This document shows positions 1 to 36,282 of a DNA stretch of 36,282 bases, piece by piece. Source of the stretch: a virus; the IMG/VR virus record IMGVR_UViG_3300027619_000002, positions 1-36,282 of that record; one strand, 5' to 3'. The notes below the pieces were generated by a model. That model ran no database searches and was not told the DNA's origin. It saw nothing but the letters and a program-made list of their open reading frames with translations. Both the position numbers and the translations under genes were made by a program. The first letter of the stretch is position 1. Each line of letters begins with the position of its first letter.

Positions 1-99
1 GGATAATCAATCTGTGCCCGAAACGGGGGTGTCAAACCACTGAAAGGTTGAACAGGTGCGACATTTACAGTCTGAAACCAAGTGGATTTTGAATAGGCT
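1..99. repeat. Terminal direct repeat, copy 1 of 2 (overlap of a circular assembly)
   Basis: Bases 1..99 (ggataatcaatctgtgcccg...ttttgaataggct) are base-for-base identical to 36184..36282, compared by eye over the full length. Confidence 0.95.
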
Positions 100-8577: not shown

Positions 8578-8772
8578 CTAACAATCCAGAACATATTTGA
8601 TTATGCAATTAGGGTCTAGACAGTCTTCTTGCTCAATTTGATGTTCACAAAATCCACACATCATTCGTTTGTATTCAGTTTCATTAATTAATCCACAATT
8701 CAGCCATTCTTGGAGGATTGTGATTTGGGCTGATGGCGACAGCACCTTGTTGAAGAAGAGTTGTGTTTTCAT
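8578..8772 (-). CDS. Small Cys protein, member of the C-terminal VL-tail family (64 aa)
   Basis: Ends ...CGFCEHQIEQEDCLDPNCIIKYVLDC-stop (CxxC-x9-C-x3-C). Its ATG overlaps the TerL stop (ATGA). Confidence 0.6.
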   Translation of the reverse strand: MKTQLFFNKVLSPSAQITILQEWLNCGLINETEYKRMMCGFCEHQIEQEDCLDPNCIIKYVLDC

Positions 8773-10433
8773 CTTGATCTATCTCCGGGGGTCCAATTTT
8801 GCCTTAGGGATTGGTCATTTCGCAATTGGGCTTGGCGACGACGCTCTTGTGCTTCTTTGACTTCAATCGCATCCGCTTCCGGGGTTCCAACTTTAGGTTT
8901 TGGAGCCAATACCAATTGTCCAGATTGTTGGAAGATAGAAAGAACAAACGCTGATACTATATCACCATGCTCCCCGGTTGGCCATTTTTGCAAAATGATT
9001 GTTATATTCCCACCCGAGTTTTTCCTCCAAGTGACTTCTTTTAACTGACGCAGTAATCGTGGATGATTTGGTATTTTGACCAACCCTTCCCTCATCAGGG
9101 TCCGAGTTTTGATGAATGATTCAGCAGGCGACATTGGGGCATCTACGAATCCTAGATTTAGCTTGCCAATTACCTCTATTGCAGTTTGTTTATAATGCTG
9201 GTCGGCCATAAAATAACTTCCGCCGTGACGGCGTATTTCTTCACCAAACTCACGACAAACTTCACTAGGCTGTAATGCTGCACCTTCTTGCGGTTTCTTC
9301 TCTATAATCTGGGCGACTCTGATAATCCCTTGTTTTAGATGCGAAACCACCAACGCACTGCTATTCTTGGTAAACCCGAGGTCAATACCCGCCATAACCC
9401 TGTCACCCGGTTCGGGGAGGGTTGGAAATTGATAGGTCGAATCAACACTCTTAGATAATACGATCGGGTCAAAGAAAGACTCAGTTCCAGCGCCCATGAA
9501 CTGGGCGCCGTATTCTCGTCGGGCATTTTCTGAATCCTGCTGATATTGTTGTTCAACCACTTGTCGTAAAATCGGACTATCTCTGAAAACCAGAGTGGGG
9601 CTGTGCATTGCGAGACATGTAGTCCCAAGCTTAAGGGTTGGAGGCAACCCGGCACATTCCGGATTCGGATGACACTGTGAAAAGAAATCGTATAACAACC
9701 CCGTTTGAGCCCAGGGTGTAGATACGATGATAATCTGAGATCCAGGAAGAACAGCGCGAATAGTAATAGCATCAAATTGTTCCTGATCATTTACAACACT
9801 TCCGGCATCTCTGAAAAATGCCGTCTCTTCTAAAGCTGCTCCAACTAAGTTCGAACCTCGTCCCGTTCGTCCCTTTCCCGACGCGGCTCTAACAACGATT
9901 TCGACAGATTTACCATCTCTAGCAAACTCAATTGATTCAGCTGCATCAGCTTTCCCGACCACCATCTTCAAAAGTTCAGGATGATTTCTGACTGCACCTT
10001 GGATAAATCTAAGTGGTTTACAAGCCTGATCCATATCTGGCGCTATGATTGGTGCTGAGGCTACTTCACCAGGTGCCAAATCGTCTAAAGGAACAGTAAG
10101 TGCCAGATGCAGGATCCGTAGGGCAATTAATACGTATGTCTTACCAGCTCTAGCTCCGGCCACAGCAACGAATACGCGACGCTGTTCATCAGTAATAGAC
10201 TCAATATCACCAAACAATTTGCGAGCTAATTCCCGATCGGACCCTCTCAAATCTTCGGGTTGAACGCCATCGTATGCGATTGCACATGCAACCAGTTGCG
10301 CACGACTTAATTTAACACCTATTTGGTCACAAAACTCTAGGAAACTCTCAGCAACCTTGAACTTCGATTTGGTATCAAACTTCAATCCACCAAGAAGATA
10401 ATCATTCGGGTCAGCTTTTTTCTTATTTGACAC
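8769..10433 (-). CDS. terL: Terminase large subunit (554 aa, GTG start)
   Basis: Walker A is VAVAGARAGKT. RNase-H-like nuclease acidic motifs are present: AGIDLGF, FMADQHY and EHGDIVSAF. It lies immediately upstream of the portal module. Confidence 0.85.
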   Translation of the reverse strand: MSNKKKADPNDYLLGGLKFDTKSKFKVAESFLEFCDQIGVKLSRAQLVACAIAYDGVQPEDLRGSDRELARKLFGDIESITDEQRRVFVAVAGARAGKTYVLIALRILHLALTVPLDDLAPGEVASAPIIAPDMDQACKPLRFIQGAVRNHPELLKMVVGKADAAESIEFARDGKSVEIVVRAASGKGRTGRGSNLVGAALEETAFFRDAGSVVNDQEQFDAITIRAVLPGSQIIIVSTPWAQTGLLYDFFSQCHPNPECAGLPPTLKLGTTCLAMHSPTLVFRDSPILRQVVEQQYQQDSENARREYGAQFMGAGTESFFDPIVLSKSVDSTYQFPTLPEPGDRVMAGIDLGFTKNSSALVVSHLKQGIIRVAQIIEKKPQEGAALQPSEVCREFGEEIRRHGGSYFMADQHYKQTAIEVIGKLNLGFVDAPMSPAESFIKTRTLMREGLVKIPNHPRLLRQLKEVTWRKNSGGNITIILQKWPTGEHGDIVSAFVLSIFQQSGQLVLAPKPKVGTPEADAIEVKEAQERRRQAQLRNDQSLRQNWTPGDRSR

Positions 10434-20592: not shown

Positions 20593-20817
20593 TTATTTAG
20601 TGTGAGATTTTACAACCGCCAACACCGCAACATCTAATACTTTCTTAGCTCCTTCGACACCGAACTTCTGTTCTAGATTATGGAGTAACTTGCGTTTCGT
20701 CGCGGATGAGAGAGTGAACTCTTGTTCTATCTCAGTGTTAGATACAGGTTTCCATAAGCCATATTCACGTTCGATTTCATCCGTGAAATCCTGAGGCGAC
20801 CAAACAATTGGGATCAT
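20593..20817 (-). CDS. Hypothetical protein (74 aa), last gene of the leftward unit; possible fibre assembly factor
   Basis: The ATG overlaps the fibre gene stop (ATGA). The product call is by position only. Confidence 0.5.
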
Positions 20818-23800
20818 GCGATCCTCACAACATTGAAATTACATGTTTCCCATGGAGGAGGGTTTTGATAAAATGTATTATAACTTTGGAATATAATGCT
20901 TTCAGCTGCTCCATAAATGGAAATAATAGCCCCCGCGGGGCAATATACTATACAACTACCATTGGCAACTACTGTCCAAAGAGTTGTGGTACCAGCTGTT
21001 GGCCCCGCGGATGAGAGAGCTGTTACCACACCATTATATGCAAATACCCCGTTTATCCCAACATAAAAATATTGTATCCTAGTTGAAGCTGTTGCTGTAT
21101 CACCACCAGGTGTTATCTGGAAATTAACTAAATAATAACCAGCATTCGTCACTGTTATTCCAGTATAACCTATAGTCATATTTGACACCACCCCCGTGGC
21201 AGTACCAGTCCACCCCCCGATTATGGCGCCAGTCAATCCACCCGAGTTGGGAAGTGTAACACCATATGATTGTCCAAATGCCTGTGCGTATCCTGGTGTT
21301 ATACCTCCTCCGCCACCTCCGGCGGGTCCGGTGACTCCTTGAACTCCTGTAGCTCCCTGTGGACCTGTCGCACCTTGTGATCCGTTAGATCCGGCCGGAC
21401 CTGTGGGTCCGGTTACACCAGGGGATCCTTGAATACCCTGGGGCCCTGTGGGTCCATTTGAAGGACCCGTAGCCCCCTGTGGGCCAGTAGCACCTTGCGC
21501 CCCGGCAGACCCTGCCGGGCCAGTTGGCCCGGTTACACCAGGGGATCCCTGTGGACCCTGACTGCCATTTGCGCCATTAGGTCCAGTTGCCCCTGTTACG
21601 CCAGGTGATCCTTGAATACCTTGGGATCCATTAGCGCCGGCCGGGCCAGTTGGTCCTGTGGCCCCAGTGACACCTTGGGGACCTGTTGGCCCACCATAGG
21701 GGCCTGTAACACCAGCTGGCCCGGTGGGGCCCATAGCCCCCTGCACACCAGATTGTAATGTGACAGTCAAATAGGCGTTATTTACTACTCCGCCATTTTG
21801 AGCGGTGATGGTTCTGAGTGTTACTACATCATTCGCATTAAGTTGTTTGAGACCTTGAACAACTAGCAGCTGTGTTGCTGATGTATTAGTTAGAGATAAA
21901 TCTTGTGCTTGGGTTCCATTAATATAAACCGCCAATCCTGAGACATATAAGCTACCACCATCAGTTAATCCAACAATTAGATACGTTCCGGCTTGAAGAA
22001 CTGTGACTGATGAATTACTCGTGTTTAATGTAGTCTGATTCGATGGACCGCTGGCATTGAATGGAATGGTTACTGGCCCGCCACCTGATGGAACACTGAC
22101 GCCAGATCCCCATAATCCACCAAATACTCCGGTAGCACCGGCGGCCGGGCCAGTAACTCCCTGTGCACCAGTAGGTCCTTGTGGTCCAGTAGGACCAGTT
22201 GAACCTTGCGGTCCAGTAGATCCTGCCCCAGCCGGGCCCGTGGGACCTGTAGCCCCAGTGACCCCTTGGATACCTTGTGGACCCTGAGGTCCAGTAGATC
22301 CTGTGACGCCAGGTGACCCTTGGGGACCAGTAGATCCAGTGACACCCTGAATACCTTGTGATCCTTGGGGTCCAGTAGATCCTGTGACACCAGGTGATCC
22401 TTGTGGTCCGGTAGATCCTGTGACACCTTGAATACCTTGTGGTCCTTGGGGACCGGTAGATCCTGTGACACCAGATGACCCTTGTGGTCCGGTGGCACCA
22501 GTAACCCCATTGATTCCTTGTAAACCAGTAGCTCCTTGTGGACCTGTAACACCTTGGGGTCCTGTAGGTCCACCATAAGGGCCTGTAACACCTTGAATGC
22601 CTGTGGCCCCTTGCGCACCCGTGGGACCAGTTGCCCCAGTGACTCCTTGGATACCCTGTGGTCCCTGAGGCCCAGTAGCACCAGTCTGACCTTGGGGTCC
22701 TGTGGGCCCAGTGACTCCTTGAACACCTTGTGCACCAGTGGGGCCTGTAGCACCAGTGATCCCTTGAATACCTTGTGGTCCCTGATTCCCTTGGGGCCCG
22801 GTTGCTCCTCTTGCACCAGTGGGACCCGTGGCCCCAGTTAATCCTTGTGGGCCCGTAGGTCCACCATAAGGTCCTGTGACACCAGCTGGACCTGTAACAC
22901 CTGTTGCACCTTGTTTTGAGCTAACATTCCATACAGTGAATTGAACTTGTGACAGCGTAGCCAGTTCTGATTGTTCGTTATTTACTAATAGCGTTAGAAC
23001 ATCGCCAGAGTTTAATGCCAACAACCCAGTAATAGCTATAGTTCCTTGATCTGAATGATCAAAACCAACTGGGCCCCAAATTAGATTTGGTTGAGGTACA
23101 CCATTTTTAAGAACTTGTAATATTAACTGAATATCAAATCCATATTCATATGTTATGCCACCTGTTACACTAACTCCATATATGTCAGTCTGATTTACAG
23201 TAATAGATGAATTAGTGCCGGATACTAATGTAACATTTGTTGATATACCAGAATTACTGAATGCTACAGTTCCAGTATAACTCCCTGTTGCTGTTGTTGA
23301 GGTGGTTGAGTATAACTGTCCGTATGCGGGAGATATTGTGCCAGTTCCTAATGGACCACCAGGACCGGTAGTTCCTTGAATACCTTGTGGCCCTGTGACT
23401 CCACGTGCACCAGTAGGTCCTTGAATACCTTGTGGCCCTGTGACACCTTGTGGCCCAGTTGGCCCACCATATGGGCCTGTGACACCGGGTGAGCCTTGAC
23501 TTCCTTGTAATCCAGTTGGACCTTTACTTCCTGTTGGTCCTTGTAATCCAGTTGGACCCTGTGGTCCCGTAACCCCCTGCACACCCTGTAATCCAATACC
23601 ACCTACACTGACAACAGAGAAAAACGCAGAATCAATGACAATCCCTGTAGAAACGAAAGATTCTAATGATTTACCTATTGCTTGAACATTAAAAACATCA
23701 CCACCTGTCGCACTAGCTAAAGCAATGACAGTTGTAGTCGTGAATTGGCTGGAATCTTCATCAAGTATACCCGTATCAGTCTGAGACGTAAGTAATAATG

Positions 23801-25232
23801 TGCCATTCTGATAAATCCCATATGTAACGCCTACTTGATTATCTTCTCCACCAGGATATGCATATTGCCATGAAATCACACATTTGATTTCAACTATTGC
23901 CGAAGCATCAATAGTTATACTATCACTAGGTCCGTGTGTTAAATATCCAGGAGAACCAAGATACCTGAATGGGACTGTGACGAGATTCGGCGCAGTAGCA
24001 CCGCTCGTGAGTGTGAACCCTGGATACGCTGGCCCACTTGCGCCAGCACCACTTGGAACATCATAGAGAAACCCATATACTTGTACACCACCTGTGATGC
24101 CAATAGCACCTGGTGGCCCTTGGGGCCCGGTTGTTCCTGTTATTCCAGGAAATCCCTGACTCCCAGTAGGACCGACCGGTCCTTGGGGACCCTCAGTTCC
24201 ACCTATTGCTATTACGTTAAATGATCCATCTTTGATTGTGAGTGATGCATTCGATCCAGTGACCGAAGCCATGACCTGGACTTGATCGAACCCATTCAAA
24301 TAATGTTGAGTTGAAATGGGAAGTATTGCTTGTGACGATGGACCGATTAATGTAACGGTCTCAGCTAATACTGATCCGTTGACTGCAACAGATAACGTGA
24401 CGTTGTTCCCAGTTATTACAGATTCTCCAATACTAACAGTTATTAGATATGGTCCCCCGACATTGGAATCAATTCCAATGCTATTAGCAATAGTCCCGCT
24501 CGTGCAAAATGTGTTTTGGAATAAACCAACATGATCCCAAATCAGAACTTGTGGAGATGTGGCTGCCTTAATTGTATTAACAGTTGTTGATCCGTAATTA
24601 ACTAATTGTCCATAAGCTTGGGTTGCTGCACCTGGACCAGTAGGTCCTGGTAAGCCAGTAGGTCCCATGGGTCCGCCAGCGGGGCCCGTAGCCCCCATAG
24701 GACCTGTATATCCAGTAACACCTTGTGGACCTGTAGCACCTTGTGCTCCGGTTAATCCCTGAGGTCCAGTTGCTCCGGTTATACCAGCGGCTCCTTGGGG
24801 TCCAGTAGCACCCTGAGGTCCTGTAGATCCAGTGACCCCTTGAACCCCAGTTGCTCCCGTGACTCCCTGTATACCCTGGTTCCCTTGGGGTCCAGTTTGG
24901 CCTTGTGGTCCGGTGGGGCCTGTTGCACCCGTGACCCCTTGGACACCCTGAGGGCCTTGAATCCCCTGTGCCCCAGTCTGACCTTGGGGTCCTGTGGGCC
25001 CAGTTACACCAGTTAATCCTGTAACACCAGCAATTCCTTGAATACCCTGAGGCCCAGTAATACCCTGTGCCCCAGTCGGACCAATACTTCCTTGAACTCC
25101 GGTTGAACCCTGAGGTCCTTGGGGTCCAGTGGCCCCTGTGGGTCCAGGAGGGCCTCCGAAAGCCCCTGTGGGTCCCTCGGCCCCTGTGGGTCCTTGTAAT
25201 GAAATAAATGCGCCGCCACGACGACTAAGCAT
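20814..25232 (-). CDS. Collagen-like tail fibre (1472 aa): five Gly-X-Y tracts alternating with five C1q/TNF-like globular domains
   Basis: Residues were counted from the translation. Collagen tracts are aa 14-201, 347-381, 546-629, 775-1035 and 1162-1310 ([13 protein letters not shown]-type triplets). Globular segments are aa 202-346, 382-545, 630-774, 1036-1161 and 1311-1472. These share AYGQL-type starts, ITV..G.Y[LG][IV], [VI]NG, and GDV[LF]/NDVVTL/FDQVQV motifs, as in C1q and BclA C-terminal domains. Confidence 0.8.
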
Positions 25233-25270: not shown

Positions 25271-25645
25271 TCAGTTCTTGGCCGAATACACAAACGTACT
25301 CGTCTCAGTTTGACTTGTGGATTTAAGAGCAAATGTTCCTGATGCCTGTGTAGCGACACTGACTTCTCCCAATGTCCCACCAGCAACATACCTGGCATAC
25401 ATGATTGGGATTGTTGCAGACACAGTTGGATCATTCACAGTCAGCATACCAGTCGGCCCCATGGCACTCGTCACTTGGTATGACGGACCAGCTGGTCCTT
25501 GTACTCCCTGAACGCCCTGTACTCCGGTCGCTCCTTGGGGTCCCGTGACTCCTTGGACACCCGTAGCCCCCTGAGCACCCCCTGACGGGCCTGTGGCTCC
25601 GGTGACCCCTTGAAGGCCGGCAAATGCACCACCACGTCTCCACAT
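25271..25645 (-). CDS. Short collagen-like fibre or whisker protein (124 aa)
   Basis: [53 protein letters not shown] followed by a roughly 70-aa beta-type C-terminal domain. It shares the RRGGAF..LQG N-terminus with the long fibre. Confidence 0.7.
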
Positions 25646-35719: not shown

Positions 35720-36282
35720 GAGTCATACTGACTTTGGCTGGTCTTGATGCATCACGGCTTCTGAGTTGGCCAAGCATGTCTGATTTCAGACGCAGCATTT
35801 CTGCCCCTGCACGATCAGATTTCTCAAACTCCTCAATTTTGAGGCAACAACTGCGGATTGCGAACTGAATTGCATAATCTTCATATCCAGCAAAACCATC
35901 TAATTGATCTGTGTCATTAACTAATGGTGTTGGTCCAAAGATATAATCGACCTGAATTGTGATTGCCCCTGTTGGAGGCGGAAGTAAACGAATCTTCCCT
36001 GTATCAGAACCATCAGCTGTGGTCTTTCCAATTAATCTGTATTTGAAAGGCTCACCGGAGAAACCTGGCGTCGCGCTTAAGAGATATGACTCTTCGGCCA
36101 GTGTGAACTTCTCCATATCACGATAGTCAGCCCCATTTATTTGTGAGGCGATCCGTTTTAGTTGATAAAAGTCACTCGGAATCGGATAATCAATCTGTGC
36201 CCGAAACGGGGGTGTCAAACCACTGAAAGGTTGAACAGGTGCGACATTTACAGTCTGAAACCAAGTGGATTTTGAATAGGCT
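35670..36282 (-). CDS. C-terminal part of the junction-spanning virion gene (continues from 263..1)
   Basis: The reading frame stays open from 36218 up to the window edge (…AYSKSTWFQTVNVAPVQPFSG-LTPPFRAQIDYP…). It joins the frame starting at ATG 263 once the 99-bp overlap is collapsed. Confidence 0.7.
   Translation of the reverse strand, partial: AYSKSTWFQTVNVAPVQPFSGLTPPFRAQIDYPIPSDFYQLKRIASQINGADYRDMEKFTLAEESYLLSATPGFSGEPFKYRLIGKTTADGSDTGKIRLLPPPTGAITIQVDYIFGPTPLVNDTDQLDGFAGYEDYAIQFAIRSCCLKIEEFEKSDRAGAEMLRLKSDMLGQLRSRDASRPAKVSMTRDQWFGRGRRRGGFNA
36184..36282. repeat. Terminal direct repeat, copy 2 of 2
   Basis: Identical to 1..99. Confidence 0.95.

Follow-up and report, generated by a model that had tools for sequence, protein, structure and literature searches.

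A five-module collagen-like protein of an uncultivated tailed phage, probably a BclA-like adhesion fibre

In the IMG/VR virus record IMGVR_UViG_3300027619_000002, analysed over its positions 1 to 36,282 (this whole stretch of 36,282 nucleotides is called the window), we studied the gene of a 1472-aa protein in which five collagen tracts alternate with five globular segments. The protein, from an uncultivated tailed phage, is probably (at a probability of about 0.7) a collagenous adhesion fibre of the BclA kind, homotrimeric and built of five tandem modules, each a collagen tract followed by a head of the BclA_C/C1q/TNF type. The alternation of collagen and globular segments is directly visible in the protein, and the same architecture recurs in other environmental phage contigs. 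The gene and its parts are listed below, with positions in the window and in the protein; extended tract lengths were computed from 273 aa = 77 nm (PMC12357932), and head scores are those of a hidden Markov model (HMM) of the head family described further on.

20814..25232, minus strand: fibre gene, 1472 aa, ATG start, final gene of the late (structural) block on the minus strand and the longest in it
25194..25232, minus strand: N-terminal peptide of 13 aa, the sole non-collagen sequence ahead of the first stalk
24630..25193, minus strand: collagen tract 1, aa 14-201, 62 triplets, two one-residue register breaks, ~54 nm extended
24201..24629, minus strand: head D1, aa 202-344, BclA_C/C1q/TNF-type by profile, family HMM 44.0 bits
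24084..24200, minus strand: collagen tract 2, aa 345-383, 13 triplets, ~11 nm extended
23604..24083, minus strand: head D2, aa 384-543, beta-rich globular, family HMM 13.7 bits
23340..23603, minus strand: collagen tract 3, aa 544-631, 29 triplets, one break at an 11-residue motif, ~25 nm extended
22911..23339, minus strand: head D3, aa 632-774, the most family-typical, family HMM 95.1 bits
22143..22910, minus strand: collagen tract 4, aa 775-1030, 84 triplets, two breaks at the 11-residue motif, ~73 nm extended
21750..22142, minus strand: head D4, aa 1031-1161, family HMM 72.8 bits
21303..21749, minus strand: collagen tract 5, aa 1162-1310, 49 triplets, ~43 nm extended
20817..21302, minus strand: head D5, aa 1311-1472, C-terminal (distal), family HMM 17.2 bits, ending in ...NVVRIA

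A first-pass annotation, made from the letters alone, had described one open reading frame (ORF) with five collagen tracts and five globular segments. This description is confirmed: its tract limits were correct to within 2-5 residues of the exact Gly-X-Y runs and its nucleotide ranges for the heads coincide with ours. Together, the five tracts contain 237 exact Gly-X-Y triplets (48% of the 1472 aa) with Gly at each third residue, and Pfam Collagen (PF01391) matches the protein in 15 stretches with a score of 277.4 bits (cut-off 27.2). Of the 237 triplets, 100 have Thr and 79 have Gln at the Y position, 86 have Pro at the X position, and five of 711 collagen residues are charged; judged on these frequencies, the composition of the collagen is BclA-like. 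Every tract precedes a head and D5 is C-terminal, which is the collagen-then-head layout of BclA. The globular segments span 131-162 aa and are joined to the collagen by linkers of 1-8 residues (4-8 residues entering each head and 1-4 leaving it).

The Gly-X-Y register is broken eight times across the tracts, each time by a short shift of one or two residues. Four of these breaks are copies of a single 11-residue motif with a one-residue register break (fibre aa 589-599, 790-800, 887-897, and 1180-1190), whose DNA copies, at about nt 23436, 22833, 22542, and 21663, are 79-86% identical over 56 nt. Two of the copies lie exactly 18 residues past heads D3 and D4. The recurrent break may be a conserved kink or a relic of module duplication. 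Within tract 4 (window 22243-22485), an 81-nt (27-aa) unit has been tandemly duplicated and has diverged, with up to 86% identity between copies, indicating recent lengthening of the stalk.

The heads are strongly diverged, with 15-30% identity to each other. The first-pass annotation had regarded all five as paralogues with shared landmarks, but their mutual similarity is weaker than it implied: in pairwise Smith-Waterman alignments compared with composition-preserving shuffles, D3-D4 reached a z score of 5.6 and all remaining pairs stayed at or below 2.6. In leave-one-out searches with a profile HMM of the other four heads, D1, D2, and D5 were not recovered above shuffles, and a profile of all five gave weak matches to the TNF-family ligand GITRL and nothing else. 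The five sequences alone thus do not demonstrate paralogy, except for D3-D4, which both approaches support. The relatedness of the heads becomes statistically real through an outside family profile. We searched a D3+D4 profile exhaustively against 1.84 billion representative proteins and obtained 49 proteins at E <=1e-3, the top one (P0001) matching in five stretches. Most of the 49 are short single-head proteins and none carries an annotation; the domain forms the C-terminal part of many fibre-like proteins, both short and long. With a family HMM built from these hits, all window sequences excluded, none of 2000 own-composition shuffles of each head reached the real score of that head (D1-D5), and a six-frame scan of the whole window returned exactly the five head sites and nothing elsewhere. 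All five heads therefore score with the outside family profile, D5 and D2 weakly, and this is the part of the shared-landmark claim that stands. Alignment with hhalign of D5 and D2 to the family gave probabilities of 64% and 33% (E 4.5e-4 for D2); in both cases, the core motifs SITV..G.Y.I, NG, and GD.V are what aligns. On these sequence comparisons, D1, D3, and D4 are firmly placed in the head family and D5 is a probable member.

Family members pass Pfam thresholds for different branches of the same superfamily: P0001 for BclA_C (61.5 bits, cut-off 38), P0003 for C1q (33.5, cut-off 23.7), and P0020 for TNF (25.4, cut-off 23). At E <=0.01, BclA_C is matched by 33 of 43 family members, C1q by three, and TNF by three. 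Against PDB, the family profile matches ExsFA (3e-5), BxpB, the C1q-related factor, ExsF, TNFSF18, and the NC1 domain of collagen X. Among the window heads, D4 matches Pfam BclA_C (PF18573) at 30.7 bits (E 3e-7), below the gathering threshold of 38, and GITRL in PDB (E 0.005); D1, D2, D3, and D5 have no Pfam BclA_C match. The window heads are thus, by their sequences, relatives of PF18573 too divergent for membership by Pfam's own rule. The earlier proposal of C1q/TNF/BclA-like heads holds for D1, D3, and D4, which the profiles firmly assign to the C1q/TNF/BclA-C jelly-roll superfamily with BclA_C nearest, and, more weakly, for D5, for which a structural model suggests the same fold; for D2, the match is weak (13.7 bits; hhalign 33%).

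The D5 model was predicted with AlphaFold2 from the family alignment and has ten strands (pLDDT 73.4, pTM 0.73), with an extra low-confidence loop at domain residues 136-150. When aa 1021-1472 were predicted without an alignment, pLDDT was 34.5. All of the top 50 Foldseek matches of the D5 model in PDB are ExsFA/BxpB/ExsF, the C-terminal domain (CTD) of F-BclA, TNF-family or C1q/cerebellin proteins, complexes included (E ~1e-5, TM 0.45-0.66), and they include 4-1BBL, RANKL, and Cbln1. In BFVD, the model matched mostly uncharacterised proteins of uncultured tailed phages; the matches include collagen-like proteins of giant viruses, a C1q protein of a haloarchaeal virus, and several 'collagen triple helix repeat' proteins of 800-1500 aa. 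Two family members show other arrangements: P0022 fuses the head domain to a Phage_cement_2 capsid-decoration domain, and P0020 has two tandem heads with no collagen separating them. The head domain is therefore a mobile module that serves in several virion contexts.

The first-pass annotation did not recognise the arrangement of five heads along one collagen stalk from any known protein. It is indeed rare, yet not unique, and a functional analogue of it, built on other folds, has been published (the Tal extensions discussed below). P0001 (1047 aa) is encoded by L001, a 33.7-kb phage-like contig (Logan SRR21473933), and has five collagen tracts (~115 triplets) and five heads. Both P0001 and the window fibre have a GGGGG-ITP-x-Y junction before the last head and end in ...RIA, and the C-terminal end of tract 5 is an 11-residue junction also present in the last module of P0001. 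The N-terminal junction and last strand of D5 are thus conserved, whereas its core is not (z 0.1 against P0001), and the heads of the window and L001 show no one-to-one pairing. In L004 (ENA ERZ3421838, 1.8x coverage), the fibre gene (L004 374-4038) is split by a frameshift into ORFs of 404 and 809 aa; the frameshift falls inside the second head, and read-through yields five heads and a C-terminal collagen tail. A separate downstream gene of 166 aa (L004 4967-5467) also encodes a head domain. In P0003 (L003, JGI 3300085990), two heads occur together with collagen, further globular units, and an N-terminus of the pectate-lyase type. These three proteins resemble the window fibre in alternating the same head family with collagen (five, five, and two heads). 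The environmental homologues differ from it in N-termini of the VVIV-x-TG type, in shorter collagen, in the terminal collagen of L004, and in the added pectate-lyase domain of P0003.

We found no description of the homologues in L001, L004, and L003 in the literature searched. Among 50,697 GenBank phage records, tblastn with D3, D4, D5, a family member, and the family consensus gave no relevant match, and the full-length fibre gave collagen-only matches covering 6% of the query. An exact-sequence look-up of the fibre returned no record. Word-indexed homologue searches returned nothing with D4 and D5 and 15 proteins with the family alignment. No related locus was detected when metagenome contigs were scanned with D3, and no relative when viral contigs were scanned with P0001.

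The fibre gene stands last among the structural genes of a complete 36.2-kb phage genome. The following neighbouring features are relevant here:

8769-10433, minus strand: large terminase (TerL)
25271..25645, minus strand: mini collagen protein of 124 aa, encoded immediately upstream of the fibre gene, with a small C-terminal domain of ~55 aa
26123-28960, minus strand: 945-aa Gly/Ala-rich protein with no family match
22070-22816 (minus strand), 22536-22841 (plus strand), 23348-23602 (minus strand): long shadow ORFs within the collagen-coding DNA, out of frame with the fibre gene

The ends of the window (1-99 and 36184-36282) form a 99-nt exact direct terminal repeat, leaving a unit length of 36,183 bp, and the window is therefore a complete phage genome, circularly closing or terminally redundant. 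Besides TerL, it encodes the small terminase (TerS) and a primase/helicase. Both terminase genes and those of large unannotated proteins share the strand of the fibre gene, which closes their block. The frame of the fibre gene is open over 4.4 kb, and a Shine-Dalgarno-like AAGG lies about 10 nt upstream of its ATG; the three shadow ORFs are frame artefacts of the GXY repeat and no genes. The only relative of TerL among GenBank phages is that of Virus Rctr16k (37% identity), from a methane-oxidising DAMO/AAA enrichment culture. A 7-kb IMG/VR contig (UViG_3300002245_000045, L002) carries a 100% identical TerL and is a fragment of the same phage; nothing else was found when viral contigs were scanned with TerL, and the scan of genome contigs gave no relatives and no clue to the host. 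The phage lineage is essentially undescribed.

The 945-aa protein may be an internal-virion, ejection or tape-measure-like protein. Scans of viral and metagenome contigs with it gave no related loci. Its distant homologue on L001 (983 aa, L001 3764-6715; E 5e-11, in collinear pieces) occupies the equivalent position upstream of the fibre, which lies two small genes downstream. In the fibre itself, Pfam recognises Collagen and BclA_C and no tail-attachment domain at the N-terminus, and the 13-aa N-terminal peptide is presumed to be a virion-attachment peptide. Its sequence carries a motif, RRGGAF..LQG, that is common to the 13-residue N-terminal stretch of the fibre and a 14-residue stretch of the 124-aa mini collagen protein, which suggests that the two proteins share an attachment site on the virion. 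By this resemblance, the 124-aa protein is probably a second, short fibre on the attachment site of the fibre; its C-terminal domain scores 26.6 bits with Pfam K1-lyase_C, slightly below the cut-off of 27.

Reviews of prokaryotic collagens describe one collagen region flanked by terminal domains (PMC8968730). The window fibre is most readily compared with BclA and F-BclA of the Bacillus cereus group (PF18573; PDB 1WCK and 9H38), which form the exosporium nap and the tip of endospore appendages. BclA-C belongs to the TNF/C1q superfamily, the collagen of BclA is glycosylated, and the CTD is very stable (PMC12357932; PMC8968730). Like the window fibre, BclA and F-BclA have a short N-terminal anchor peptide, an uncharged collagen-like region rich in GPT/GXT, and a C-terminal jelly-roll head of the TNF/C1q type. 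The likeness extends to the heads: BclA_C is the top Pfam match of D4 and the match of 33 of 43 family members, and the D5 model resembles the F-BclA CTD, ExsFA, and BxpB. However, BclA has one collagen-head module and sits on the spore surface, while the window fibre has five modules per chain and is encoded by a phage. The window fibre also differs in having heads under the Pfam BclA_C cut-off, in lacking the exosporium-leader motif, and in having Gln about as frequent as Thr at the Y position.

Eukaryotic proteins with collagen and gC1q (C1q, adiponectin, collagens VIII and X, otolin-1, and cerebellins) likewise have a stalk followed by a C1q head, which in them drives trimerisation, and the likeness is seen in the matches of the family profile to the C1q-related factor and collagen X NC1 and in the passing of Pfam C1q by P0003. 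Unlike the window fibre, they have a single C-terminal head per chain, no internal heads, and hydroxyproline-stabilised collagen. Single-head C1q/TNF-like tips of phages and extracellular contractile injection systems (eCIS), namely receptor-binding proteins of marine and cryoconite phages, Pam3 gp24, and eCIS C1q fibres, resemble it in having a presumed receptor-binding module of the C1q/TNF type (PMC7468147, PMC9608196, PMC12923769). They differ in having one head on shafts that are mostly non-collagen; gp24 of cyanophage Pam3 has an alpha-helical shaft and a glycine-rich tip.

The closest published analogue of beads on collagen is the Tal extension of the Streptococcus thermophilus phages TP-778L, 9851, and SW13, in which globular binding modules are set on collagen-like linkers within one trimeric adhesion protein (PMC9437275). 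The Tal modules are carbohydrate-binding modules (CBMs) of unrelated folds (BppA-like and CBM4-like) and small three-strand '3-beta' domains, whereas the heads of the window fibre are of the TNF/C1q type. Tal carries up to three modules on a large N-terminal Tal domain and the window fibre carries five; Pfam, which found Collagen and BclA_C alone in the protein, detected no such (gp27-like) domain before the first collagen tract.

We propose that each head would trimerise and then nucleate, and set the register of, the triple helix N-terminal to it, as in BclA, C1q, and collagens VIII and X. Each tract ends at a head, and the collagen, some 200 nm in all and uncharged, hydroxyproline-free, and rich in Thr/Gln, would then fold as five short, independently clamped segments instead of one long one. 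The heads would also be candidate ligand-binding surfaces. D5 is predicted to be the likeliest primary receptor-binding tip, being distal and having a junction and last strand conserved with P0001 around a core that is not. At the other end, the fibre is probably anchored to the virion by its short N-terminal RRGGAF peptide. The Thr residues at the Y position may be glycosylated, as they are in BclA (PMC8968730; PMC12357932). Duplication and recombination across the repetitive GXY-coding DNA probably created the architecture and keep reshuffling it; the strong divergence of the heads and the lack of pairing between window and L001 fit such shuffling, as well as possible binding roles.

How five heads could be accommodated along the fibre depends on the position of the chain ends. 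In the textbook topology of TNF, C1q, and BclA heads, both chain termini lie at the base of the trimer. With linkers of 1-8 residues, the outgoing helix must then begin beside the incoming one, and we therefore regard a straight string of coaxial beads on one stalk as doubtful and kinked or hairpinned nodes as more plausible. A more specific picture is that internal heads act as nodes with helices side by side, giving a zig-zag, hairpinned or bouquet-like fibre on which several different trimeric heads would be displayed jointly. This multivalent and possibly extensible arrangement, which is not known to have been described for any fibre, is offered tentatively and is rather unlikely in this particular form.

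Several points weigh against the reading of the protein as a BclA-like adhesion fibre. The base-exit topology would be puzzling for an internal head that caps one triple helix and starts the next. None of the window heads reaches Pfam's BclA_C threshold. The alignment behind the D5 model consists mostly of family members, so that a bias towards the family fold is possible. The fold of D2 is putative, its profile scores suggesting a divergent member of the head family; a single-sequence PDB search with it gave chance-level immunoglobulin light chains and nothing informative. Sequence searches of the structural neighbours against PHROGs, Pfam, and PDB yielded no annotation. The 'tail fibre' labels from PHROG were rejected as evidence and left unused, since the matched stretches are collagen alone and are silent on location. 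Trimerisation, location on the virion (tail or capsid), glycosylation, and ligand binding of the fibre are all predictions, and the several receptor-binding nodules proposed in the first-pass annotation are likewise putative.

The alternative nearest to the BclA-like adhesion fibre overlaps with it and differs in emphasis: the five heads would mainly bind different host surface ligands, and the collagen would be a flexible spacer, as in the S. thermophilus Tal. We give this emphasis somewhat less than an even chance. Heads at 15-30% identity, without one-to-one matches between window and L001, are what it would lead one to expect, and the Tal precedent, in which collagen-like linkers space out as many as three CBMs (PMC9437275), speaks for it, as do the recurrence of C1q-like domains as putative receptor-binding proteins in phage variable regions (PMC7468147) and the C-terminal position of the head domain in many short and long fibre-like proteins. 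However, no ligand site was identified in the heads and binding is putative, a head after each collagen tract is the pattern expected of folding nuclei, and internal heads may be less accessible sterically. It is unlikely that the fibre belongs to the capsid or another non-tail surface, as a hairy nap or decoration comparable to BclA on spores or giant-virus fibrils, serving adhesion to particles or surfaces over primary receptor recognition. The fusion of a head to Phage_cement_2 in P0022, the Foldseek matches that place the fold in giant-virus collagen-like proteins, and the N-terminus of only 13 aa, with no recognisable tail-attachment domain, are consistent with such a role; on the other hand, the gene ends a block of large tail/ejection-type proteins, directly after the protein whose homologue precedes the L001 fibre, and other family members carry fibre repeats (P0004) or a pectate-lyase tailspike domain (P0003).

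Two further explanations would do away with a continuous five-module chain. Each module is a complete collagen and head unit, and both C. difficile BclA1 and the BclA N-terminus are known to be processed proteolytically (PMC8968730), so the chain could be a polyprotein cut after each head into five separate BclA-like fibres. We consider this very improbable: the four junctions contain no protease domain and no conserved cleavage motif, with head-to-collagen linkers of 1-4 residues, and the N-terminal motif is found on the first module only, leaving the released pieces without an anchor. Less probable still is an assembly artefact that collapsed or chained several fibre genes through their collagen repeats, which the first-pass annotation had named as a possible refutation. 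The collagen-coding DNA is repetitive (many copies, 60-88% identical) and the source is metagenomic, but no exact DNA repeat within the ORF is longer than 32 nt, the frame is uninterrupted over 4.4 kb, the 99-nt exact terminal repeat closes the contig, and the independent samples behind L001 and L004 yield five-head proteins with different sequences.

Spores, complement, and matrix collagens all use the classic single module of collagen with a C1q/BclA head; in the window fibre, one polypeptide contains five such modules, and the arrangement is found in at least three unrelated environmental phage contigs. The base-exit topology of the heads poses the structural question of how a trimeric TNF-type head sits within a triple-helical rod. 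If each head nucleates its own collagen segment, the fibre would represent a natural route to the folding of very long hydroxyproline-free collagen, with relevance to the engineering of bacterial collagens. Should the heads bind different ligands, it would be a compact build of a multi-specific phage adhesin.

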